A DNA stretch of 64,000 nucleotides from Candidatus Micrarchaeota archaeon (GCA_038046805.1 JBBSVO010000007.1:1-64000), one strand, 5' to 3'. Shown: positions 1 through 19,515, counted from the first letter of the stretch. Notes: generated from the letters alone by a model not told the origin. Made by a program: numbers and translations.

Positions 1-271
1 CGTTTATTCCAAGAAGAAGAAATATTACTGCCGCTACTGCAATTGCGAGTCCGTGAGTTGGTTTGTCAATTTTTCCTGTTAAAACCTGTGCAACGATTGC
101 AGCAAGAAAGATGTTTGAAAAATCAGAACCGGAGATAACGAATCCTATCAATAACCCGGAAATAATCGCAAGCGGCCATTTGACAATAAACGAGCCTTTC
201 AATTCATCTTCTATCCAATCAACTGATTTTATGAGGAAACCGGAGAGAAATGAAAGGAGGTAGAAGAGCAT
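1..271 (-). CDS. Membrane protein, 3' end runs off the window
   Basis: Read manually: MLFYLLSFLSGFLIKSVDWIEDELK...GKIDKPTHGLAIAVAAVIFLLLGIN. Open to the window edge, with several hydrophobic segments. Confidence 0.7.
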   Translation of the reverse strand, partial: MLFYLLSFLSGFLIKSVDWIEDELKGSFIVKWPLAIISGLLIGFVISGSDFSNIFLAAIVAQVLTGKIDKPTHGLAIAVAAVIFLLLGIN

Positions 272-343
272 TGTATGGCCAATATCGATTCTGGCGTAAA
301 GGATTATATAAGTTATGCTCTGTTCTTCTGTCTGGGTGATGAG

Positions 344-1015
344 ATGGTTGTGCAAGCTAATTGTGAAACAAGAAAACCTTCGTTGAGTGTAAGAGTGGCC
401 GCGGCAGCAATACCTTTTTTACCCGCAGAGGCATTGACACGGAAGTTTGCAGGCAGGATACTATAGCGCGCCAAACAAGTTTTTCGGACCAGTGGCGCGC
501 AACTATTGGTTTCTGGGTCCTAGGTTCTAGCTCCTGGGTTCTGGAAACACGACTTCAAATCCGTCTGTTCCGCGCCAGCAGCTAGGAGCCAGTACCCTAC
601 CGGTGCATCCTCCGAATTACTTTGTTGGACTGCTATAACCGAACTTCCGACCCCTAAGCCAAGGAAAGGCCGCGAAGAGGAGTATGACGATTCGATTTTC
701 GGGGACGTTAGAGGATAACCGGATTATTTGCTTATGTCTGTTCTTGATGTTGCCCGACGCGCGTATGGAAAATATTCCTCTCCGCGGGCAAGGGATTTGC
801 TTCTGTCCGGACAGGTAAAATGCTTCCATGCAACAGTTATTCTCGCATCCAGATTGACCAATCCGGAAGATGCAAAAGCAGTGCTGGATTCCGGGAAAAT
901 AACCGATTCGGATGTAAGTAGTATGATTCAGTACAGCCTCAAGTATCCCGCGCCCCCAGAGCCCAAAGGATTTCTGCAGAGGTTATTGAACCTGACAAGG
1001 ATTACGGAATTATAG
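344..1015 (+). pseudogene. Probable degraded orphan gene; intact C-terminal ORF at 728..1015
   Basis: GGTGA RBS before ATG 344. The same frame continues to 1015 with stops at 464, 521 and 716. The C-terminal part resembles ORF 59769..60134 (VLDSGK[I/L]T). Confidence 0.4.
506..595. repeat. Degenerate heptamer tandem repeats, two arrays in opposite orientation
   Basis: ttggttt-ctgggtc-ctaggtt-ctagctc-ctgggtt-ctggaaa (506-547) and ccagcag-ctaggag-ccagtac (575-595). Confidence 0.65.
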
Positions 1016-1033
1016 GTTATTCGGTTGGTTTTG

Positions 1034-1519
1034 TTATTCGATTTCTGAAATAACAAATTCCTTGCCCCTAAATAGGATTGTGTCACCGACTTCCTTTCCA
1101 AGAAGTTGACTACAGATTGGAGCGGTCGGACTCATTAGAGTTATATCCCATTCATCAATCTTGACGTTGCTCCCTTCTCCATCCGGAACAATGAAAAATC
1201 TTAAGACATCGTTCAAATGCTCAAGTGTAACCAAGGCCCCGGAAAGTACGTGATCAAACTCCCTGGATTGCATAACAGATGCAATCTCTGTAAGCACAGA
1301 TAAAGTATTTTCAACTGCTTTTCTGCGTTTTACTAGACCGTCAATGAGCCACCCGGTTTCAATTTTTGTGGTATCGTGATGGGATTGCATTGCTCCTGGA
1401 GCATCGATCATTCTATTTTTGGCCTGTTCAATAGACTCTCTGAGTTCATCCAGAGTCTTTCTAAGTTGCCCCGTATGTTGTTCGAGAATTTGCTGTTTTC
1501 TCTGTAATTTAAGTGTCAT
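1034..1519 (-). CDS. GreA/GreB-family C-terminal domain protein (bacterial type)
   Basis: N-terminal coiled coil followed by GALVTL...MSPTAPICSQLLGKEVGDTI, the Gre C-terminal signature. GGAGG RBS before ATG 1519, which overlaps the upstream kinase gene end. Confidence 0.75.
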   Translation of the reverse strand: MTLKLQRKQQILEQHTGQLRKTLDELRESIEQAKNRMIDAPGAMQSHHDTTKIETGWLIDGLVKRRKAVENTLSVLTEIASVMQSREFDHVLSGALVTLEHLNDVLRFFIVPDGEGSNVKIDEWDITLMSPTAPICSQLLGKEVGDTILFRGKEFVISEIE

Positions 1520-2147
1520 TAAACCAACCTCCAAAATTTCTTATTTTATTAGTGATTATCTGTATGATCTTATCTGCAACTTTTACTAGATCGATATTTG
1601 TAGAATCAATAACCTCCACTTCAGAAAGAACCGCCCGCGCTTCAACCAATCTCAAAAATTCTGTTTGCACTGCGGAGGTTAGTTGCGTATTAACGTCACG
1701 GTGAGTGTTTTGCGTTTGATCGCGGCCAGCAAGGCGAGCACACCTTGCCTCTTCATTTGCGATAAGAACTATTGTTGTGTGGGGTAAAAAACCCCCGTTC
1801 TCAGCAAATGTTTTGAAAAAATCTGTGAACGTATATCCGTCTCTTCTTCCAAGAACATTATGATATGCAACAGTAGATAAAACAAATCTATCGCAGCATA
1901 CCGGGTCGGTCTCACAAACTTTTCTTATTTTTGGGGACAAGTAAAAGTCAGCAGCTGCATAGAATGAAAATCTCGCTCCGAGATGAACCTCCCGTGCATC
2001 AAAAACTCCCCGAAATTGATTCAACTCGTCTGGAGGACATTTGAAAGGAACAAAAAGTTCCGGCCTCAATTTTTTGGCCAGTTGTATTGCAGAACTCTTG
2101 CCAACTCCATCAACACCGTCCACTGTAAAGAATGGCTTTCTTATCAT
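1509..2147 (-). CDS. Thymidylate-kinase-family nucleoside monophosphate kinase, CMPK2-like
   Basis: P-loop DGVDGVGKSS and DRFVLSTVAY motif. KCPP..NQFRGVFD and FY segments resemble CMPK2. Confidence 0.8.
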   Translation of the reverse strand: MIRKPFFTVDGVDGVGKSSAIQLAKKLRPELFVPFKCPPDELNQFRGVFDAREVHLGARFSFYAAADFYLSPKIRKVCETDPVCCDRFVLSTVAYHNVLGRRDGYTFTDFFKTFAENGGFLPHTTIVLIANEEARCARLAGRDQTQNTHRDVNTQLTSAVQTEFLRLVEARAVLSEVEVIDSTNIDLVKVADKIIQIITNKIRNFGGWFNDT

Positions 2148-3253
2148 AGTAATTTCCCCCCATTACGCAATGCAATCAAGATTTTTTCATCAGTAATTGT
2201 TCGATCCGTCAAATCAACAATATTATCAGTTCTAGCTAATGCAGGACAGGGCTGCAATAAACCTTCCGCGGATAGCCGAATATGAGATCTGCAACCCTCA
2301 TTGCATTTAGATCTTGAATGACACGCCAGGTTCACACAAGAATTGGCTATAGAATCGTCAATAAAATCGATAACTGCTCCCTCGACTAGGATCACCTTTC
2401 CATTGTGTGGGAAGGCATATGAAAATTCTTTCGAAGAAAGAGTGGAAAGAAGACGCAACATCAGAGCAACGTCTTTCATAGATTCTTCAGATGAATTCAG
2501 ATTTTGAAACATTTTTATTGGAATTCCTAAATCGGACGCCAATTTTATATATTCATGGATTTCGGCGAGAATAGAACCAGTAATCACACAGTTTATTTTT
2601 ATGTCCAAACCAGTCTGAACTGCAATTTGAAGACTGTGTAATACAGCAGATAACCCATCAACCCCTGTTATAGATCGGTAGGTATCTCTATTAAGACTGT
2701 GAAGAGAAACATTTACCTTTGACAAACCAGCATTTGAAAGATCCGTGGCAAGTTTCCCTAACAATAGCCCATTTGTAGTAAGAGCCAAAGAAACAACTGG
2801 TTTGAAGACCCTGAACTTTCTAACAAGATCTACCAATTCCATTAAAGTTAGTGTCGGTTCTCCATTCCCTGCTATGTGTACTTGGATAGGTTTGCCAGTC
2901 ATTGAATATAATCTTTCAGTTGCATGAACAAAAAATCCATTATCTACAGCTTTTCTTCCCTTCCCACCAGAAAGACTATCCTCGTGACAGAAAACGCATT
3001 TCTGATTACAATTTCTCCCAGTTACACGACTTCCCGCCTTGAAAGTTTTATCGATTCTCACACGAAGAAAATCAGACCGTGTCACCTGCCGTTTCTGAAC
3101 ATATCGTTCGAATCTTTCTTCCGAAGTCGTCCTCCCATTTCTCAAAAGTTGCACAAACTCACTCCAGCTTAAGCCAGTGTACTTTGTGAAAGTGTGCCTC
3201 CATATAAATCTATGTGGTATCCTATAACCCCACACTGTGGCCTCAAACACCAT
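2144..3253 (-). CDS. Radical SAM enzyme, MoaA/viperin-like NTP-acting subgroup
   Basis: CNQKCVFC (CX3CX2C), GNGEP, TTNG, VNVSLHSL, KINCV, and a C-terminal Cys cluster with RLSAEGLLQPC. Confidence 0.85.
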   Translation of the reverse strand: MVFEATVWGYRIPHRFIWRHTFTKYTGLSWSEFVQLLRNGRTTSEERFERYVQKRQVTRSDFLRVRIDKTFKAGSRVTGRNCNQKCVFCHEDSLSGGKGRKAVDNGFFVHATERLYSMTGKPIQVHIAGNGEPTLTLMELVDLVRKFRVFKPVVSLALTTNGLLLGKLATDLSNAGLSKVNVSLHSLNRDTYRSITGVDGLSAVLHSLQIAVQTGLDIKINCVITGSILAEIHEYIKLASDLGIPIKMFQNLNSSEESMKDVALMLRLLSTLSSKEFSYAFPHNGKVILVEGAVIDFIDDSIANSCVNLACHSRSKCNEGCRSHIRLSAEGLLQPCPALARTDNIVDLTDRTITDEKILIALRNGGKLL

Positions 3254-3285
3254 ATCATTTAAACCATTGCCATTATACTATCAGC

Positions 3286-4029
3286 ATGGAAGTTGAATGT
3301 CTGAAGGAACTCGGATTAAGCAATGGACAGATCTCCGTCTATTCCGCGGTTCTTGAGCTTGGAGCAGCACCAATGAACAAGATACAGGAAAGAACAAGGA
3401 TTGAACGCAGAAACATCTACGATATCCTGAACAAGCTCATACAGCGCGGGCTGGTTACTTACGTGCTTGAAGACCAGAAAAGAGTCTATCGTTGCACCCA
3501 CCCGAGTCATATCTGCGAGGAGATATCAACGAAGAAAAGTGCCTTAGATAAGCTTGAAAAGCAGATTCCTCAGTTTTCTGCGTTTTTTGAAGCTACCAAG
3601 CCAGAAGTGAATTTCCAGATATTCAAAGGTCCCGATGCGATGAAGGCATTGATGAACGAAATCCTTCAGCACGATTCAAGCTACTGGATGGGTGCAAACA
3701 GCAGCATAGAGCAGACGCCCCTCAAAACATGGTTTAAGCAATGGATGGGCCGCCGAGTGGAACAAAAAAGATTCATGTATGATCTGGCCAATTACAGCAC
3801 TCATTTTGAAGATTACCCTACCTATGACACAACGGAGCATAAAAAGCGGTTTTACAAATACTGCCGCCTTCCGCTGGATTTGAGGTCATTCATAACAATC
3901 ATGATCTTCGAAAACAAGGTCGCCCAGGTATTGTGGGGCTCTGAGCCATATGCCTTCGTGGTGGAATCAAAAGAAGTCAAGGAAAGCTATATGAAATACT
4001 TCAATCAATTCTGGGATGACCCATGGTAA
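3286..4029 (+). CDS. TrmB-family transcriptional regulator
   Basis: LKELGLS...VYSAVLELG...RNIYDILNKLIQRGLV winged HTH plus a C-terminal effector domain. ATG 3286 chosen over the upstream GTG. Confidence 0.85.
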   Translation: MEVECLKELGLSNGQISVYSAVLELGAAPMNKIQERTRIERRNIYDILNKLIQRGLVTYVLEDQKRVYRCTHPSHICEEISTKKSALDKLEKQIPQFSAFFEATKPEVNFQIFKGPDAMKALMNEILQHDSSYWMGANSSIEQTPLKTWFKQWMGRRVEQKRFMYDLANYSTHFEDYPTYDTTEHKKRFYKYCRLPLDLRSFITIMIFENKVAQVLWGSEPYAFVVESKEVKESYMKYFNQFWDDPW

Positions 4030-5195
4030 GCAAGCCGATAAAAGTAGGGGTTCTTCATTCCCTGACCGGGACAATGGCAATCAGTGAATCGTCGCTTGTA
4101 GATGCAACACTGCTTGCAATTGACGAGATCAATGGCAAAGGAGGAGTGCTGGGAAGGCGCATTCAGCCAATAGTGGTTGATGGCCGCTCCAACTGGCCTG
4201 TTTTTGCGAACGAGGCAAGGCGGCTCATTGGGCAGGAGGGGGTTTGCTCTGTTTTCGGTGGATGGACATCTGCGAGCAGGAAGATAATGAAACCGATATT
4301 TGAGGAACTTAATAACCTCCTCTGGTATCCGGTTCAATATGAGGGCCTGGAACAATCACCAAACATCGTGTACCTCGGTGCTGCCCCAAATCAACAGGTG
4401 CTTCCTGCTGTCCAGTGGGCAATTCGCAATTTAGGCAGGAGGATTTTCTTGATAGGTTCGGATTATGTCTTTCCAAGGAGTGCAAATGAAATAGTAAGGG
4501 ATGAGATAGAAAATCTCAGCGGGGAGATTGTCGGAGAACAATACAAGGTGTTGGGGGTTCAGGATTTCAAATCAGTTGTTGAGGAAATAAAGAGAACAAA
4601 ACCAGATTTTATTTTTAACACTATCAATGGGGACAGCAATATCTCATTCTTCAAACAGCTTAGAAAGGACGGAATAACTTCGGATAAGGTTCCAACAGTG
4701 TCCATGAGCGTTGCAGAGGATGAGGTGCGCCATATAAATCCAATCCTTACTTCTGGTGACTATGCGGTATGGAATTATTTTCAAAGCCTTGATAACAGAA
4801 CAAATAAACTTTTTGTTAAGAATTTTAAATCTCGTTATGGCCCACATCGAGTTACTTCCGATCCAATTGAAAAGGCATATTCTGCGGTTTTCTTCTTTGC
4901 CCGGGCAGTTGAAAAAGCTGGGGATATAGATGTTTCTTCAATACGAAATTCATTGAAAGGAATCAGGTTCTCTCTTCCGGCCGGTAGTACCACGATTGAT
5001 TCATCTACACAGCACCTTAACCAATCAGTTAGGGTTGGCCGTGCACGTGCCGATGGCCAGTTTGATATAATTTGGGATTCAAAAAATCCGATTAAACCAG
5101 AGCCTTATCCAAAATCCCGTTCTCGGGAGGAATGGCACGCATTTTTGAACAGCCTTTACAGGCAATGGGGCGGAAGATGGGCTAATCAATGTTGA
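4023..5195 (+). CDS. UrtA/AmiC-like urea/amide-binding protein without signal peptide
   Basis: IKVGVLHSLTGTMAISE, FGGWTSASRK, LWYPVQYEGLE, GAAPNQQ, GSDYVFPR, NTINGDSN motifs. Confidence 0.9.
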   Translation: MVSKPIKVGVLHSLTGTMAISESSLVDATLLAIDEINGKGGVLGRRIQPIVVDGRSNWPVFANEARRLIGQEGVCSVFGGWTSASRKIMKPIFEELNNLLWYPVQYEGLEQSPNIVYLGAAPNQQVLPAVQWAIRNLGRRIFLIGSDYVFPRSANEIVRDEIENLSGEIVGEQYKVLGVQDFKSVVEEIKRTKPDFIFNTINGDSNISFFKQLRKDGITSDKVPTVSMSVAEDEVRHINPILTSGDYAVWNYFQSLDNRTNKLFVKNFKSRYGPHRVTSDPIEKAYSAVFFFARAVEKAGDIDVSSIRNSLKGIRFSLPAGSTTIDSSTQHLNQSVRVGRARADGQFDIIWDSKNPIKPEPYPKSRSREEWHAFLNSLYRQWGGRWANQC

Positions 5196-5399
5196 TTACT
5201 TTTCATTTTCATGTTTTACTGTGTCCGCGATAGGCTCTGTTTGTCCTGCACGCGGGCGGAATACTCTTCCTTCTCGGAGAGTCTCTGCTCTACCACGTGG
5301 ACCATATACGCGTTCATGTGCACCAACCCGGCCGTCTGAATGGGAAGTAGGTCTTGGAGTTGCTCTGGACACTCTTTCATGGACAGATATTCTAGTCAT
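5196..5399 (-). CDS. Small basic hypothetical protein
   Basis: 67-aa ORF with a GAGGTG RBS; fills the intergenic gap exactly. Confidence 0.6.
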   Translation of the reverse strand: MTRISVHERVSRATPRPTSHSDGRVGAHERVYGPRGRAETLREGRVFRPRAGQTEPIADTVKHENEK

Positions 5400-5450
5400 A
5401 GATACACCTCATAATTATTTAAGTGTTATTCATTATGTACGGAAACGTTT

Positions 5451-6377
5451 TTATATCTTGCTTTTTACAACTTCAGACATAATCATCGGAAACACAATCG
5501 TCGCATCCCCATCAACCGTCACAGAATTCGTGGCTTTTGCTTTCTCGGAAATTTTTCCCCAGGAAACTGCTTCCTGTGTTCTTGCTCCGGATAAAGAGCC
5601 ATCCCATGGCGATGCAGTAGTTACATAAACTGCATAGTCTAATCCGCCACGCAGGATATTTACTCCAATCGTGTGATGCTTTGAAATCCCGCCTCCGAGA
5701 ACTATCGCGCCAGTCTTGTTTGCCGTCAGTACGCTCTGGGCGAGTTGCGGCATATCTTTTGTAACATCAATCCCGAAATCGCGATGCTTTGCCTGCTGCT
5801 TGAAGAAATATGCCTGAAGCCCGATGGCCGAATCGGTTATCCCCGGGCAATAGACCGGAATATCGTTTCGCGCGGCCCAATATAAAAATGACGGGGAATT
5901 GTTTTTCGTTTTTCCGATTTCGTTTCCAATCTCCCGCGCAATCTCGCTCGGTGAGCAAAAATGGTTTTTGTTTTTCGCATAGAGCCGCTCGAAAATCGGT
6001 TTCATTTTTTTCTCAAGAAGTTCGTATCGCTCGTTTGGAATTAGGATATTTCCGAGACGATTTACTCCGCGCTTATGGAGTTCGGCATCGTCCATGAAGA
6101 AATCGCCGATAAAGTAGTCGTCGTAAGCCCGAATCAGATCATGATCAAGCGAACCGCCTGCAGTTATTATCGCATCAACAAATTTCCGTTCGCACAATTC
6201 TGCGAAAATTCCTCGCAAACCGCTTGCAACCATATTTGATGTGAATGACAGAAACACAGTCGCGCGTGCCTTTTTCATATTTTTTATTATTTGAACCGCA
6301 CGCTCTATTTGGGTTGCCTGAAAGCCAGTACTAGTAGTAATAGAATCGCCCATTCGAATATCCTTTACAGATTCCAT
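5451..6377 (-). CDS. dys: Deoxyhypusine synthase
   Basis: FTSNMVASGLR, LGGGISKHH, DGSLSGARTQEAVSWGK, DATIVFP motifs. Confidence 0.97.
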   Translation of the reverse strand: MESVKDIRMGDSITTSTGFQATQIERAVQIIKNMKKARATVFLSFTSNMVASGLRGIFAELCERKFVDAIITAGGSLDHDLIRAYDDYFIGDFFMDDAELHKRGVNRLGNILIPNERYELLEKKMKPIFERLYAKNKNHFCSPSEIAREIGNEIGKTKNNSPSFLYWAARNDIPVYCPGITDSAIGLQAYFFKQQAKHRDFGIDVTKDMPQLAQSVLTANKTGAIVLGGGISKHHTIGVNILRGGLDYAVYVTTASPWDGSLSGARTQEAVSWGKISEKAKATNSVTVDGDATIVFPMIMSEVVKSKI

Positions 6378-6381
6378 ATTA

Positions 6382-7389
6382 TCACTTATCTTTATCTTCC
6401 GGGGTTTTTAAAAGCAATTCCCCTGCCATTGGAAAGTATGAAACTTTGTCCTCATTTACCCAAACGTAATACAGATAGTTTCGTATGGACCCCCTGAATT
6501 TTTTGCGTATCTTATCCAGAATCTCCCTGAATTTCGTGTGGTTTTCCACTTCAAATTCCACCTCAAGGTCAGTGCCTCCGCCAATGCTTTCATAGGCATA
6601 AACTGCATTCGGATGAGATGAGAAATATGCAAGCAGATCTTTTTTTGAACGATAATCATCCAGCTGGAATTCGACCTTGTACCAATAGACCCCGAGTTTT
6701 TCAAGGTCAATCTTTGGCCTGAAACCGAGTATTACTTCCTTGTCTTTCAGTCTTTTGAACCGGTGTTTTACTGCAGTTACGCTAAGACCGATTTTATTCG
6801 CAAGGTCCACGATAGGCAACCGCGCATCAATCGAAAGTTGAGTTAGTAGTTTTACATCGTGCTCGTCATATCTCACGGAAATGCTCCTTCCGGAGATAAC
6901 CGTTTGCATCCCATCCGTGTGTTTTTCACTTAGATATTTTTTTCTCCATGAGTATATCTTTGAATAGAAAGAATCGCGAAGCAATTCTATCTTGTTTCTA
7001 AATCTTCCAATGCAGCTGTCTTTGAGCTCATGAAAATCCAGAACGTCCTTGACCCAGCACGCGACACCGAGGTCGTATAGCGAGGATGTGATGCCACCAA
7101 CCCACCAAAACCGTTTGTGCCTTATAAAAAATTCAATAAGTTCTTTTTCTTCTTCTGGAGGGATGCTTCGGAATTTCAGGAACATTCTTGCATTCATGAA
7201 TCCTAGTTTTGTCAGATCAATGATCGCATAATATCCCTTTATCAGCCCAAGTTCAGTCATCCGCTTTATGCGGTATCCGACTACTTCCTTGCTTGCCCCG
7301 ACGTTCTTTGCTATGCTAGAAATAGGCAGTCGTGCATTCAGGTCCAGCTGATAAAGTATCTCTCGGTCTTTTTTATCTAACTCGATCAT
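6382..7389 (-). CDS. Tandem-duplicated Lrp/AsnC-family regulator
   Basis: Two Lrp HTH+RAM units (LDKKDREILYQLDLNAR... and DEHDVKLLTQLSIDAR...). Confidence 0.9.
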   Translation of the reverse strand: MIELDKKDREILYQLDLNARLPISSIAKNVGASKEVVGYRIKRMTELGLIKGYYAIIDLTKLGFMNARMFLKFRSIPPEEEKELIEFFIRHKRFWWVGGITSSLYDLGVACWVKDVLDFHELKDSCIGRFRNKIELLRDSFYSKIYSWRKKYLSEKHTDGMQTVISGRSISVRYDEHDVKLLTQLSIDARLPIVDLANKIGLSVTAVKHRFKRLKDKEVILGFRPKIDLEKLGVYWYKVEFQLDDYRSKKDLLAYFSSHPNAVYAYESIGGGTDLEVEFEVENHTKFREILDKIRKKFRGSIRNYLYYVWVNEDKVSYFPMAGELLLKTPEDKDK

Positions 7390-7497: not shown

Positions 7498-8265
7498 ATG
7501 GATATCGAAACCTCTTTCCACAATACTTGCAAAATCCTGTTCGGAACCCCACTCGGCACACTCAAGGATTTTGATCCATACCTGCGCGAGGCCACAGTAG
7601 GGAAAACAGTCAAATCCAACCTTTCAGGCAAATTGCTTAAGGTACTTTCAAGTCATTATCCGGAAAATGCCAGGTTTTTCGATTATAATCTGGAGTTTAG
7701 CAAACTCTCCGCTTCGTTATCTGCCTCGTCCAAACCACTCAACATAAACCAAATCAAGGACATTGACTCTCTTTTCAGCGCAGTGAAGGAAAAAATTATC
7801 TACAGCGGAAATAAGGTTCTCGGAAATTCAAACGACGTTTATGATTCCGATGATGTTGTCGATGGCGCATTTGTTTACGATTCCACATATATTCGAAATG
7901 GAAAATTCGTTTACTGCTGTTATCTCATGAATGAGCCTGAATTTTGTTTTGGCTCATCTTCGAGCGGTCAATCGCAATATATCATGCGTTGCTTCTACAA
8001 CAACACGCTTAAGCGATGCTTCGAATGTTGCACCTCAGTTGGTAGTTCTGACCTTTATTTTTGCTATAACCTGATTGGTTGCTATGACTGCCTGTTCACG
8101 TTCAACGTGCGGAACAAAACGAACATGATTGCGAACGTTCAACTGAATAAAGAACAGTATGCTGAACTAAAAAATAAGCTGGTAGGCGAAATTGCCGAGG
8201 AACTGAAAACAAAAAAGCGGTTTAGGTATTCGATAATAGATATCCTGAACCGGGATTACGGTTAA
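7498..8265 (+). CDS. Cys-rich hypothetical protein (beta-solenoid-like repeats)
   Basis: Repeating C/S-Y/F short units (RCFECCTSVGSSDLYFCYNLIGCYDCLF); paralog of the next gene. Confidence 0.8.
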   Translation: MDIETSFHNTCKILFGTPLGTLKDFDPYLREATVGKTVKSNLSGKLLKVLSSHYPENARFFDYNLEFSKLSASLSASSKPLNINQIKDIDSLFSAVKEKIIYSGNKVLGNSNDVYDSDDVVDGAFVYDSTYIRNGKFVYCCYLMNEPEFCFGSSSSGQSQYIMRCFYNNTLKRCFECCTSVGSSDLYFCYNLIGCYDCLFTFNVRNKTNMIANVQLNKEQYAELKNKLVGEIAEELKTKKRFRYSIIDILNRDYG

Positions 8266-8280
8266 AGAGGCGCCCATATT

Positions 8281-9051
8281 ATGGCTTTCCCTGAAATTGA
8301 AAACGAATTCCGCACCACGACCCGCCTGCTGCTCGGCACCGAGCTTAAGGATATTGATGATTATGGTGAATGGCTCGGAAGGCGCGTTCCACTTCCATCC
8401 CTGTCAAAATCCATCCTAAGCGGAAAGGAGGTTTGGCTTCCGCCGCCATTGAGCTTCCGCAATACCTGCTTCACAACAAAGCGCGTTATCTCAATGGAGG
8501 AAATGGACGAGGTGAATAAATCCACATTTTCACCTCATGATTTGAAAGACGCGAGCGTGGACGGAATAGTGCAAAAATTCATAATGCCAGTCGTTTACGT
8601 CGCAGGTAATTTCCGATATCAGGAGCATAAAAATGTTGAAAAATGCAGTGGGGCGGGGGGAGGACTGAACCTCTACTACGGGGAAGACCTTTATCTGGGC
8701 ATAAAAAATGTCGCATATTCCAACTACGCGCTTTATTGCGAAAATATGTTTGGCTGCCATGCGGTTCTTCATTCAAAATTCTGTATCCATGCGTATAATT
8801 CAACCAATATAACGCGTTGTTTTGAGGTGGATGGATGCGCAAATTCCAGTGATCTTTATTTTTGCCATAACTGCGAGGGCATGAGCAATGCGATCCTGTG
8901 CTTCAATGCAAAGAACCTGCGGTACGCTGTTGGCAACGTGGAAGTAGGGCCGGACGAATTTGCGAGGATAAAGAAGATGCTGCTTGGGCATGTGGCAAAC
9001 GAGCTAAAGACCAAAAAAATGCTGGATTCAGATATCTACAATGTTGGTTGA
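8281..9051 (+). CDS. Cys-rich hypothetical protein, paralog of 7498..8265
   Basis: Shares the N-terminus (IE..F..T...L.GT.L) and RCFE....SSDLYFC.N..G...CFN.KN motifs. Confidence 0.8.
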   Translation: MAFPEIENEFRTTTRLLLGTELKDIDDYGEWLGRRVPLPSLSKSILSGKEVWLPPPLSFRNTCFTTKRVISMEEMDEVNKSTFSPHDLKDASVDGIVQKFIMPVVYVAGNFRYQEHKNVEKCSGAGGGLNLYYGEDLYLGIKNVAYSNYALYCENMFGCHAVLHSKFCIHAYNSTNITRCFEVDGCANSSDLYFCHNCEGMSNAILCFNAKNLRYAVGNVEVGPDEFARIKKMLLGHVANELKTKKMLDSDIYNVG

Positions 9052-9099
9052 GATGAATCACCACTTTATTAAACCTTTTTGAACACATAGCTGCGTATT

Positions 9100-10038
9100 A
9101 TGGCTTATCAACAAGGAGATACTAATTCGCGTTTTAATGTTAACAACTTACGAACTATCGAGGGTGTTAGAAGTCACCTAAAAGGATTATTAGAAGAAGC
9201 ACGTGACCTGCCAACAATTAAACAAAGGCGCAGTGAATTGACAGATGCATTGCCAATGTTTCATTTTTGCAGGGATTGGATTGAAAAAGGATATTGGAGA
9301 GAACGAGCTGCAGTTCTTGAAGAAACCGCCCAACTTGCCCAGGTTTTTGGATTTGGGATTTCTCCTTTAAAAAAACCGCTCATGCGTGCGATCCGAAGTT
9401 CGGATAATGAAATCCGTTTGGCAGGGTTGCGAGCCGCTGTTTCTAATGAACAGTTGTTAGCATCCTTGGACGCATGGGTTGTGTCATACACAAGCGAACT
9501 AAAACCAAGGGAACAAAACGAAATCGTACTAAAAGCAGTTATACTTGCAGAACAGAGCGGATTTTCTTCAGTGCATGAAACTGCTGTAGAATTAATATTT
9601 AATGCAATTATGTATGGTGAAACAGATATTGTAGCTGGAGATAGGTGTTCAAGATTTATGGTATCAATGCCTGCAGAAAAATACCCATATATTGACAGAG
9701 AGGTACGAGAATTATTGCGCGTTTTTATCTTAGATGAAATAAAAATCAACGCTACTCCTGAAGATACTACGATAATACTTGAACCTTTATTTCAACTTGT
9801 TGTTTGGCTTGCGGGAGAGCGCAAACTACCAGATGTAGCACTCAATTTATCGTATATTCTTGACCATAATGAAAGCTTAATCAGGAAAGCAAGAAGAGCT
9901 CATGTGAGATATAATATAGAACCTGAAGAAGATTGGTTTTTGTTTCATTCTACAAACTATACAATACGCGAAGCACTGAGAAAAATGGGCGTGAACAGAG
10001 ACACGTTTGGTGGGCGACTATCAGAACAACCGATGTGA
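9100..10038 (+). CDS. Hypothetical alpha-helical protein
   Basis: 312-aa ORF with no recognised motif. Confidence 0.65.
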   Translation: MAYQQGDTNSRFNVNNLRTIEGVRSHLKGLLEEARDLPTIKQRRSELTDALPMFHFCRDWIEKGYWRERAAVLEETAQLAQVFGFGISPLKKPLMRAIRSSDNEIRLAGLRAAVSNEQLLASLDAWVVSYTSELKPREQNEIVLKAVILAEQSGFSSVHETAVELIFNAIMYGETDIVAGDRCSRFMVSMPAEKYPYIDREVRELLRVFILDEIKINATPEDTTIILEPLFQLVVWLAGERKLPDVALNLSYILDHNESLIRKARRAHVRYNIEPEEDWFLFHSTNYTIREALRKMGVNRDTFGGRLSEQPM

Positions 10039-12262: not shown

Positions 12263-12685
12263 TTACCTAAAGCGCATCACATATTTCTTTACTTCATCTA
12301 TAAACAGGGTTACGTTGGAAAGGCCATTCTTTATTTTCCACATCTCATCAATGGAAAGAGTATAATATTCGTGCGCAATAATGTTCCGGTATTTGACAAG
12401 TTTGTTCATCTTCGCCGCGGTTTCGCCGCTAATTGCCTTGGATTTGGCAAGAATGTCAAATGTTTCCTTATACGTTCCTGGAAGCGACAGACCTGCAGAG
12501 GAGGAAAGGATTTCATTTCCGATATCTATTGCACGGTTCATGACTGAAAATATCACCATCGAAACCGCATAATATTTCTCTCTTTCTGATAAATCATCTT
12601 TTGATGATACGCGCATCTCGCTCAAATCAAAAAGATATTTTTCGATATCCTTTATCATTATTGAAACCTGCTCTTTGTCTAGCAT
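12263..12685 (-). CDS. HEPN/DUF86 RNase toxin
   Basis: YRNIIAHEY (RX4HXY); coupled to the upstream MNT gene. Confidence 0.92.
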   Translation of the reverse strand: MLDKEQVSIMIKDIEKYLFDLSEMRVSSKDDLSEREKYYAVSMVIFSVMNRAIDIGNEILSSSAGLSLPGTYKETFDILAKSKAISGETAAKMNKLVKYRNIIAHEYYTLSIDEMWKIKNGLSNVTLFIDEVKKYVMRFR

Positions 12686-13053
12686 GACAACACCTTTTCA
12701 ACAAACCTGTCCCTCCAGTGCTTTTCATCAAGGTAATGCTTAATGGTCCAGAACTTTAGCTTAGTAAGGAGCTTGTCATCCTTGCTGAAAAGAAGCTGCC
12801 CATCTCTGAAAACGTGATACCGCACTACGAGCGGTAGCTTATGAAATAAGGAGATATCCAGTTTATCGGATGAAAGGTCAAGGGGAGAATCATCTTCGGA
12901 TGTGGTTATGGCACAGATGTCTATATCCGAGTTCTTTCTTTCTTTTCCCTTTGCGACAGAACCAAAAAGTATTGCGGCTTTTACGGATTTTAATCTCCTG
13001 AGTTGTTCGGACAGTTTTTTTACAATGCTTTTGGAATTAACTTCATTGTGCAT
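12679..13053 (-). CDS. Minimal nucleotidyltransferase (MNT) antitoxin
   Basis: LFGSVAKG...SDIDI motif; overlaps the HEPN gene start. Confidence 0.92.
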   Translation of the reverse strand: MHNEVNSKSIVKKLSEQLRRLKSVKAAILFGSVAKGKERKNSDIDICAITTSEDDSPLDLSSDKLDISLFHKLPLVVRYHVFRDGQLLFSKDDKLLTKLKFWTIKHYLDEKHWRDRFVEKVLSC

Positions 13054-18930: not shown

Positions 18931-19515
18931 CTACAATCTCAACGATTCCATGATTTCTCGATGGACATCGCTAATGCTCATTGTAGCATCTACTTTGTGC
19001 CAATTAGGGGTTAAAAACTTATCCTTGGCGAGCTGGAGAAATCGTTCGCGGACTTTTTCAAGATATTCTGCGTTTTCCTCATAGCGGTCTAGCTGCTTTT
19101 GCTTGCGCTTGCGCTCCTGGGATACTGAAGATGGAATGTCAAGCAGAAGAACAGCGTGCGGAACAATGAAATTCATTTTCGCAACAGCCTGCTTTCCATT
19201 TTCGTAATCATACCCGCCAATTGTTTCATACGCGATTGTTGAAAAAACATAGCGGTCCAAAATCACGAATTTTTTTGAATTTAGTGCCGCCCGTACCTGC
19301 TCTTGCTCTTTCATAATGTCTGCAAGAAACAGCTTGAATAAATCCTTTGGTTCAATCTCAATTTTCTTTTCAAGATAATCATTCAATTCCGGGGTGTTGT
19401 GGGTTGGATATTTGAAAACAGCGAGTTCGTTTCCGAATTCCTCGCGAAGGAGATGTATCTGGGTTTCTTTCCCACACCCGTCGATTCCCTCAAAAACAAT
19501 TAACAGCCCCGCCAT
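18931..19515 (-). CDS. tmk: Thymidylate kinase
   Basis: IVFEGIDGCGKETQ, ILDRYVFSTIAY. Confidence 0.93.
   Translation of the reverse strand: MAGLLIVFEGIDGCGKETQIHLLREEFGNELAVFKYPTHNTPELNDYLEKKIEIEPKDLFKLFLADIMKEQEQVRAALNSKKFVILDRYVFSTIAYETIGGYDYENGKQAVAKMNFIVPHAVLLLDIPSSVSQERKRKQKQLDRYEENAEYLEKVRERFLQLAKDKFLTPNWHKVDATMSISDVHREIMESLRL

Follow-up and report, generated by a model that had tools for sequence, protein, structure and literature searches.

A rare radical SAM, kinase, and Gre-like gene cassette in a Micrarchaeota genome as a possible viperin-analogous module

A three-gene cassette in a Micrarchaeota genome

A stretch of 64,000 nucleotides from the genome of a Candidatus Micrarchaeota archaeon (GCA_038046805.1, JBBSVO010000007.1:1-64000; here named the window) carries a cassette of three overlapping minus-strand genes for a radical S-adenosylmethionine (SAM) enzyme, a kinase of the Tmk family, and a Gre-like protein (Table 1). 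In this study, we found that the cassette is a rare accessory element and that its radical SAM enzyme, judged by sequence, belongs to a separate small clade beside MoaA. We tentatively propose, with a confidence somewhat short of even, that the three genes could act as a viperin-analogous module. This module would produce a nucleotide analogue directed at polymerases and bring its own RNA polymerase factor, most likely for self-protection.

Contig C7 of a 1.2-Mb assembly (16 contigs, 86% complete) begins with the window, which takes up its first 64 kb, and the cassette sits less than 1 kb from the contig start. An earlier reading of the DNA, made from the sequence alone (here called the original prediction), had described three overlapping genes, and the corresponding open reading frames (ORFs) and their overlaps were confirmed. 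The stop codon of the radical SAM gene and the start codon of the kinase gene overlap as ATGA, and the 3' end of the kinase gene overlaps the Gre-like gene by 26 nt if the latter is read from its TTG start or by 11 nt if it is read from ATG 1519. This ATG (residue M6 of the ORF) is more likely the real start, as suggested by a GGAGGT sequence 9 nt upstream and by the homologues, which begin at M6; the ESM Atlas entry likewise runs from residue 6.

A radical SAM clade beside MoaA

The radical SAM enzyme matches the Pfam family Radical_SAM (PF04055) with an E value of 2e-13. Its best NCBIfam match is moaA_archaeal (TIGR02668) with 113.8 bits, about a third of the cut-off of 325.25, and the scores for NF001199 (109 versus 231 bits), TIGR02666 (100.5 versus 284.05 bits), and the viperin model viperin_w_prok (NF038283; 40.7 versus 180 bits) lie below the respective cut-offs as well. 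The domain Mob_synth_C (PF06463) was not found in Pfam searches at E ≤0.01. A search of 5.8 billion proteins yielded 18 clusters at E ≤6e-48 (P0001 to P0018, including the one of the window protein), all of them without PF06463 in precomputed Pfam annotations. They are followed by a gap, and true MoaA begins at an E value of 3e-29 (P0019 on); nearly all listed MoaA rows from there on carry PF06463, with the exception of one partial row.

Phylogenetic analysis of 41 rows using IQ-TREE placed the 14 clade rows in a monophyletic group (SH-aLRT support of 99) whose stem measures 3.8 changes per site. The 26 MoaA rows, which represent every fourth of the best-scoring MoaA-type rows between P0019 and P0120, fall outside this group. 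The tree was a quick run with a single, long-branched viperin-like outgroup. When a profile of 17 clade members was compared to the PDB, MoaA was matched with an E value of 1.3e-19, AbmM (8WM2) with 1.1e-7, and viperin with 5.5e-4. The AlphaFold2 model of the enzyme (predicted local distance difference test [pLDDT] score of 80.8, predicted template modeling score of 0.80) retrieved MoaA in Foldseek at 1.2e-13 and BlsE, AbmM, NifB, and viperin at about 1e-9. The closest structural neighbors are thus mostly enzymes acting on nucleotides or nucleosides, but they also include NifB and further radical SAM enzymes whose substrates are not nucleotides. By sequence, the enzyme is a member of a separate, small, and long-branched clade that is neither true MoaA nor viperin.

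Closer examination of the protein sequence revealed that the CX3CX2C motif is formed by C82, C86, and C89 within CNQKCVFC, and that further cysteines are present in the C-terminal part (C306, C311, C317, C321, and C336). In alignments, C317, C321, and C336 have their counterparts in the three C-terminal cysteines of archaeal MoaA rows that serve as auxiliary-cluster ligands, in agreement with the MoaA-like cysteine cluster described in the original prediction, whereas C306 and C311 are two extra cysteines that are invariant in the clade and not found in MoaA. Like the three aligned cysteines, the residues R66, N221, K247, and R326 do not vary within the clade; R66 aligns with the place of R17 of MoaA and R326 with that of R268. 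The clade also keeps a GGEP-type motif and a C-terminal GGK, and the window enzyme has a 9-residue insert after the R17 equivalent. Most clade members of Micrarchaeota show CX3CX9C through a 7-residue insert, and the window protein, P0003, and P0004 keep CX3CX2C.

Two further features had been used to relate the enzyme to viperin or to set it apart. The strands KINCVI (residues 219 to 224) and IKMFQ (residues 246 to 250), which had been likened to the triphosphate-binding strands of viperin, are indeed present in the translation, but they are not specific to viperin, as they align with VKVNVVI and IEIRFIE of MoaA. Because MoaA shares these motifs, the argument for viperin is weak, and the alignment suggests that they mark the nucleoside triphosphate (NTP) site shared by the superfamily and not a likeness to viperin specifically. 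The unusual N-terminal extension of about 60 amino acids is doubtful as well: homologues align only from about residue 45, the pLDDT is 37 to 60 over the first 40 residues, and the first 40 nt of the ORF overlap a divergent TrmB-like ORF if the latter is read from its called start, GTG 3214. The extension is probably an over-called start, and the true start would be GTG 3154 or TTG 3145, giving a protein of about 333 to 336 amino acids.

Since the best family and structure matches are to MoaA, the auxiliary-cluster cysteines are conserved, and some databases label clade members as cyclic pyranopterin phosphate synthase, the enzyme might be a divergent GTP 3',8-cyclase in molybdenum or tungsten cofactor synthesis. 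We consider this extremely improbable in view of the low score against the MoaA models, the lack of a detected Mob_synth_C domain, the long stem of the separate clade, and the outcome of searches for the molybdenum cofactor (Moco) pathway. Profiles for MoaC (PF01967), MoaE (PF02391), and MoeA_N (PF03453) gave no match in the genome, although it should be noted that the assembly is 86% complete; the same profiles were positive in 11 of 14 control genomes. The check for moaC and moeA proposed with the original prediction thus found neither gene, and its statement that the window holds no other Moco genes is correct and extends to the genome. Furthermore, no better MoaA was found in the genome, and a scan of 11 clade loci revealed no Moco gene. 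Because MoaC, MoaE, MoeA, and a better MoaA were not found in the 86%-complete genome, the enzyme most probably does not serve Moco synthesis. Together with the scores, the missing domain, and the tree, this bears out the idea of a distinct radical SAM clade.

The kinase and the Gre-like protein

The kinase matches Thymidylate_kin (PF02223) with an E value of 2e-11 (44.3 bits versus a cut-off of 27) and stays below the cut-off of the dTMP kinase equivalog (53.2 versus 83.25 bits). A P-loop, GVDGVGKS, and a DRF motif are present in the translation. The original prediction had distinguished it from a canonical Tmk encoded elsewhere in the window and had compared it with vertebrate CMPK2. The canonical Tmk is real (Table 1) and shares only 22% identity with the cassette kinase; the likeness to CMPK2 was assessed indirectly, via matches to two PADLOC entries, the candidate-system protein PDC-M51B (2.1e-18) and the viperin-associated kinase VakA (1.4e-8). 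By sequence comparison, the protein is a Tmk-superfamily paralogue of the viperin-associated type.

Sequence similarity of the third protein to known Gre factors is low. It matches the C-terminal domain GreA_GreB (PF01272) with an E value of 2.5e-4 (21.4 bits versus a cut-off of 26.9) and TIGR01462 with 21.1 versus 139 bits, and no match to GreA_GreB_N was obtained with Pfam. The AlphaFold2 model, built from four sequences (pLDDT of 77), predicts two helices (residues 3 to 44 and 50 to 89) that form an antiparallel coiled coil, and a beta domain (residues 100 to 165). The top 11 matches of this model in a Foldseek search of the PDB are the N terminus of HelD, GreA, Gfh1, and GreB (probability of 0.97 to 1.00), all of which bind the secondary channel, with Rnk further down. 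The TM-scores are low (0.30 to 0.37), which we attribute to a hinge between the two predicted domains. The ESM Atlas model reached TM-scores of 0.81 to 0.87 to clusters named GreA/GreB, all Atlas clusters being bacterial. Both models and the Foldseek matches thus agree with the assignment of a Gre fold to the third gene.

A profile search identified 1,766 proteins of this family at E ≤1e-3, of which 531 were found at E ≤1e-10. Among 22 members scanned, 17 match GreA models far below the cut-offs and five match none; two members with a named origin are from a Woesearchaeota and a Patescibacteria metagenome-assembled genome. The tip motif IDAPGAMQSHHDTTK is invariant among the closest relatives, and in 152 rows of the family the tip follows the nearly invariant pattern DAPGxMQS(H/R)xDT(S/T)K. 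In a MAFFT alignment that included a single true GreA (L133) and in which the sequences are distant, serine occupies the first acid place in 142 of the 152 rows and aspartate the second in 150; these places are presumably D41 and E44 of E. coli GreA, which we take to be the catalytic ones. Position 44 is aspartate or glutamate in 126 of the 152 rows. A predicted complex of the protein with the C-terminal 430 residues of RpoA' from the same genome scored 0.00 and 0.00 and gives no evidence either way. In viral contigs, 12 pattern matches to the family were found, none of which was confirmed.

Related loci and distribution

Scans of genome and metagenome contigs and searches of the phylum yielded 19 loci of the radical SAM clade (the window, L005 to L014, L016, L077, L082 to L086, and L094), some pairs of which are near-identical. 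The proposed linkage to nucleotide kinases is well reflected in this set, as 15 of the 19 loci have an adjacent kinase (11 Tmk/dNK-like and 4 PRK/uridine-kinase-like). Other neighbors are CYTH (10 loci), NUDIX (5 loci), and HD (1 locus) proteins, a methyltransferase with or without a PfkB kinase (3 loci), and a PfkB kinase alone (L077). The NUDIX protein resembles PDC-S07 of the defense library, and several loci also hold a divergent protein of 405 amino acids resembling Csa3/CARF-wHTH. A protein of 233 to 249 amino acids that follows CYTH in L084, L085, and L008 was considered as a second CYTH and dropped, as it has no Pfam match even at an E value of 0.1.

An RNA polymerase secondary-channel factor is encoded in 6 of the 19 loci. 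The Gre-like protein is found in the window and in L082, where a radical SAM gene (45% identical to that of the window) is followed by a Gre-like gene (43%) and a NUDIX gene, without a kinase. In L011, L012, L013, and L016, the operon ends with a gene for TFS, a protein of 110 to 115 amino acids in which the acidic DE loop is kept; from its sequence, this factor looks active. It is the only match to PF01096 at E ≤0.001 in its four genomes, one of which (G002) shows a second, weak match at 0.003.

Among the sequences retrieved, members of the Gre-like family turned up at just three archaeal sites, namely, the window, L082, and the genome G431, and each of them has a radical SAM gene. In G431, a divergent HD gene precedes overlapping genes for a viperin-like radical SAM enzyme, a kinase, and a Gre-like protein. 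The radical SAM enzyme matches NF038283 with an E value of 6.6e-25 (87.8 bits, below the cut-off of 180) and the PADLOC model pVip with 1e-26; the kinase matches PDC-M51B with 3e-24 and is 30% identical to the window kinase, and the Gre-like protein is 38% identical to its window counterpart. The pair of kinase and Gre-like protein therefore travels with two different radical SAM families of the nucleotide type.

Further observations were made at individual loci. Upstream of the cassette in L082, the closest relative from metagenomes, lies a gene (positions 989 to 4192, plus strand) for a protein of 1,067 amino acids that reads as a methyltransferase-like N terminus with a long series of ankyrin-type repeats. 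In L016, on a contig titled Marsarchaeota, the radical SAM gene (positions 5989 to 7020, plus strand) is split over three frames (tblastn matches at 6001 to 6300, 6326 to 6658, and 6754 to 7020), pointing to a frameshift or an assembly error. In L062 (G069), which holds a TFS of the cassette type, the surrounding 3 kb are free of cassette genes. In L073 (G140:C7, positions 1477 to 3109), a TFS of the same type (113 amino acids) is divergent to a Csa3/CARF-wHTH-like gene for a protein of 405 amino acids, and the radical SAM clade was not found in G140.

We also analyzed how widely the cassette genes occur. In 60 relatives from the same order, neither the radical SAM clade nor the Gre-like protein was found (0/60 each, the latter by single sequence as well as by profile), and TFS above the cut-off was likewise absent (0/60). 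Including the genome itself, this makes 0 of 61 genomes of the order for TFS (PF01096), 32 of them of high quality, and TIGR01384 gave no match in the genome either. Within 401 genomes of the phylum (Micrarchaeota, DPANN), the radical SAM clade was detected in 12 (about 3%, the genome itself and one borderline case included) and the Gre-like family in two. The latter was not detected in 301 genomes of an Aenigmarchaeota-type phylum. Among 81 relatives of G003, six carry the radical SAM clade and 13 carry TFS above the cut-off; both occur together in three, in two of which they are adjacent. Many Micrarchaeota appear to have lost their transcript-cleavage factors or to carry forms that escape recognition. 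Because it was not found in the searched relatives and was detected in about 3% of the phylum genomes, the cassette is a rare accessory element.

Proposed function and alternatives

The original prediction had interpreted the cassette as a nucleotide-modifying system analogous to viperin. Of this interpretation, the distinct radical SAM clade, the linkage to kinases, and the Gre fold stand; the motif argument for viperin is weak, and the N-terminal extension is probably an artefact of ORF calling. In the module that we tentatively favor, the kinase would feed an NTP substrate to the radical SAM enzyme, as CMPK2 does for viperin. The enzyme would bind this NTP much as MoaA binds GTP, with the auxiliary-cluster cysteines and the arginines at the R17 and R268 places kept, and would then perform radical chemistry on the ribose. 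In this chemistry, MoaA abstracts H-3', and viperin abstracts H-4'. The product would poison or terminate the nucleic acid synthesis of an invader, and the Gre-like factor (TFS in the sister cassettes) would most likely excise the analogue from stalled host transcripts. The factor would protect host transcription because chain-terminated complexes resume only after transcript cleavage, as described for Pol II, where TFIIS increases it (PMC2994637). Such protection would account for a factor being brought into a lineage in which no other cleavage factor scores above the family cut-off. Regarding the kinase, a preprint reports that prokaryotic viperins (pVips) are often located beside CMPK2-related kinases (10.1101/2023.09.13.557418).

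A bolder form of this proposal, which we regard as doubtful, would describe the cassette as an immune module with its own proofreading: the MoaA-derived radical SAM enzyme would make a terminating NTP, and the cassette factor would clear host transcripts. As part of this form, the factor would be TFS in some Micrarchaeota and, in the window, a Gre-type protein that came from bacteria and acts on an archaeal polymerase, and it would be needed because reduced lineages show no detectable cleavage factor.

Several observations weigh against the proposed module. The functional interpretation draws on gene neighborhood and predicted fold. Of 75 Micrarchaeota genomes in which the radical SAM clade was not found, 10 nevertheless have TFS, and in the third of the G003 relatives that carry both (G121) it lies 93 kb away from the radical SAM gene. 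In bacteria, five places with apparent Gre-like proteins in four genomes comprise one true GreA, one open frame without a Pfam match (L132), and three Pfam-confirmed members in three genomes; as the latter have no radical SAM or kinase neighbor, the link to radical SAM enzymes is not general to the family. To our knowledge, Gre factors are bacterial and not expected in archaea, and we know of no precedent for a bacterial-type factor on an archaeal RNA polymerase. A defense-island setting, suggested earlier as a test of the idea, was not seen in the window, where the cassette has housekeeping neighbors; the only nearby defense-type pair is HepT/MNT, about 9 kb from the cassette.

A further objection comes from the loci themselves. 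A polymerase factor is missing in 13 of the 19, and while at least L014, L083, and L094 end at a contig edge, L084, L085, L008, L077, and the PRK-type loci are truly without one. Some variants with a methyltransferase, a PfkB kinase, and the protein of 233 to 249 amino acids look like a biosynthetic pathway. These loci suit a metabolic alternative, in which the cell itself uses the modified nucleoside, nucleotide, or cofactor that the enzymes make (for example, in salvage or RNA modification of a genome-reduced symbiont) and the linkage to Gre or TFS is incidental synteny or co-regulation. The partner genes belong to ordinary nucleotide families (Tmk/dNK, uridine-kinase/PRK, PfkB, NUDIX, HD, CYTH, methyltransferase, and NTP-transferase), the window neighbors are housekeeping genes, and contigs of an RNA library match parts of the operon at low depth like its neighbors, the last being weak support, as DNA carry-over is possible. 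One would, however, not expect a housekeeping pathway to be missing from all 60 relatives of the order and to occur in no more than about 3% of the phylum. Incidental linkage would also leave unexplained that one slot holds either of two unrelated polymerase factors (Gre-like or TFS), that the searched DPANN genomes otherwise contain hardly any member of the Gre-like family (2/401 and 0/301), and that the radical SAM enzyme is swapped for a viperin-like one while kinase and Gre-like protein are retained. We therefore regard a purely metabolic role as unlikely, yet as an explanation of some weight.

The tip of the Gre-like protein speaks against the proposed module in another way. Its alignment suggests that the first GreA-type acid is replaced by serine, and stimulation of cleavage is not to be assumed. 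Near invariance of the tip without this acid would fit a role other than cleavage, for instance, in a signaling system. Here, the radical SAM enzyme, the kinase, and CYTH would make a nucleotide second messenger that is degraded by NUDIX and HD proteins and acts on RNA polymerase together with a secondary-channel factor, like ppGpp with DksA; the outcome would be growth control or a shut-down upon infection, with the Gre-like protein or TFS as the effector. The combination of putative synthases and hydrolases (NUDIX, HD, and CYTH) in the cassettes would be in line with this, as would the sensor-type regulators beside them (the Csa3/CARF-wHTH-like protein of 405 amino acids, and TrmB-like and AmiC-like proteins in the window) and the arrangement in G140, where a cassette-type TFS adjoins such a regulator without a radical SAM gene. 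Nevertheless, the DE loop that an active cleavage factor should have is retained in the cassette TFS, a nucleotide-binding pocket in the Gre-like model would have to be assumed, and the same pair of kinase and Gre-like protein follows a viperin-like radical SAM enzyme, the known products of viperins being chain terminators and not signals. A signaling role thus appears improbable.

If the viperin-analogous reading is true, viperin-style chemistry would extend to MoaA-derived enzymes and the product might be a new antiviral or antibiotic nucleotide. Producers may then tolerate their own chain terminators through factor-stimulated transcript cleavage. A bacterial Gre-type factor on an archaeal RNA polymerase would be surprising in itself, and the cassette would give the divergent Gre-like family a first link to a function.

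Genomic context of the cassette

The coordinates of the cassette genes and of other features in the window are listed in Table 1. A probable divergent promoter region is predicted between the cassette and a gene for a TrmB-like protein from a consensus reading: TTTATAT is found on the minus strand upstream of the in-frame GTG 3154, inside the called N-terminal extension, and TTTAAA is located on the plus strand about 26 nt upstream of ATG 3286. By its position, the TrmB-like protein is a candidate regulator of the operon. Its stop codon overlaps the start of a gene for an AmiC-like protein, which has no obvious signal peptide and is cytoplasmic-looking. The AmiC-like gene was found in none of five searched relatives at E ≤1e-20, a genome of the same genus among them. 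It may be part of the same accessory stretch, its membership in the cassette being uncertain. Possibly, the two genes represent a ligand-sensing regulator gained together with the cassette.

Table 1. Features of the window, with positions counted from its first nucleotide
Feature	Position	Strand	Remarks
Gre-fold protein gene	1034..1534	-	166 aa from TTG; 161 aa from likely start ATG 1519
Tmk-family kinase gene, putatively of viperin-associated type	1509..2147	-	212 aa; ATG start
Radical SAM gene, MoaA-like twin-cluster enzyme of small separate clade	2144..3253	-	369 aa as called
Probable divergent promoter region, radical SAM operon/TrmB-like gene	3155..3285		Predicted; consensus reading of sequence only
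TrmB-family winged-helix regulator gene	3214..4029	+	PF01978, E value 1.2e-13, residues 30 to 97; likely start ATG 3286
AmiC/urea-binding-type ligand-binding protein gene	4023..5195	+	PF13433 Peripla_BP_5, E value 2e-150
HepT-like RNase and MNT-type nucleotidyltransferase genes	12263-13053	-	Toxin-antitoxin-type module
Canonical Tmk gene	18931..19515		112.4 bits

Three successive ORFs on the plus strand (positions 7498 to 10038; 255, 256, and 312 amino acids) have no Pfam match at E ≤1e-5, and the first of them is cysteine-rich. The remaining window consists of archaeal housekeeping genes, including those for GINS, PolB, aIF2, ribosomal proteins, and the canonical Tmk. In the metatranscriptome library X13, eight short mismatch-free contigs were found over positions 1 to 6400, including 1020 to 1444 (Gre-like gene) and 2548 to 3017 (radical SAM gene). 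Their depth is 2 to 4, intergenic and neighboring stretches are covered alike, and DNA carry-over is possible, so that they are no proof of expression. The same DNA is present in groundwater and aquifer metagenomes of six studies.

Comparison with known systems

Among solved structures, MoaA (1TV7, 1TV8, and 2FB2) is the closest relative of the radical SAM enzyme, both by profile and by Foldseek, and shares with it the CX3CX2C motif, the three C-terminal cysteines, and the R17 and R268 places. In contrast to MoaA, the enzyme has kinases, CYTH, NUDIX, HD, and Gre or TFS proteins as partners. AbmM (8WM2) and BlsE (7VOB) belong to actinomycete antibiotic-biosynthesis clusters. Both are among its top structural neighbors, and AbmM is also matched by sequence (1.1e-8); compared to MoaA, however, their similarity is much weaker, and their partner genes were not seen in the scanned loci.

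With GreA, GreB, Gfh1, and Rnk, the Gre-like protein shares a predicted N-terminal coiled coil and C-terminal beta domain, but, as the distant alignment suggests, it carries its conserved tip pattern in place of the acidic pair of GreA. TFS, which replaces it in sister cassettes with an intact DE loop, is the archaeal functional analogue of Gre.

Like the cassette, pVip and VakA combine a radical SAM enzyme and a Tmk-superfamily kinase in one operon, and both systems are sporadic. The CYTH partner of the cassettes also echoes the triphosphatase or cyclase domains to which, according to the preprint (10.1101/2023.09.13.557418), some eukaryotic viperins are fused. In contrast to viperin, which makes 3'-deoxy-3',4'-didehydro (ddh) nucleotides and protects against viruses, the window enzyme keeps the MoaA-type auxiliary-cluster site, and its nucleotide product is putative. 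In the literature sections that were available, we found no report of an RNA polymerase factor in viperin operons, the supplementary neighborhood tables of the preprint lying outside this search, and no paper describing the MoaA-like clade or its Gre/TFS partner (PMC12988326 included). Radical SAM nucleotide-analogue systems with a partner kinase are a known kind, and the linkage of viperin and kinase is already published. New here are the presence in archaea (DPANN), the use of TFS instead of the Gre-like protein in sister cassettes, and the swap of a MoaA-like for a viperin-like radical SAM enzyme before the same pair of kinase and Gre-like protein.

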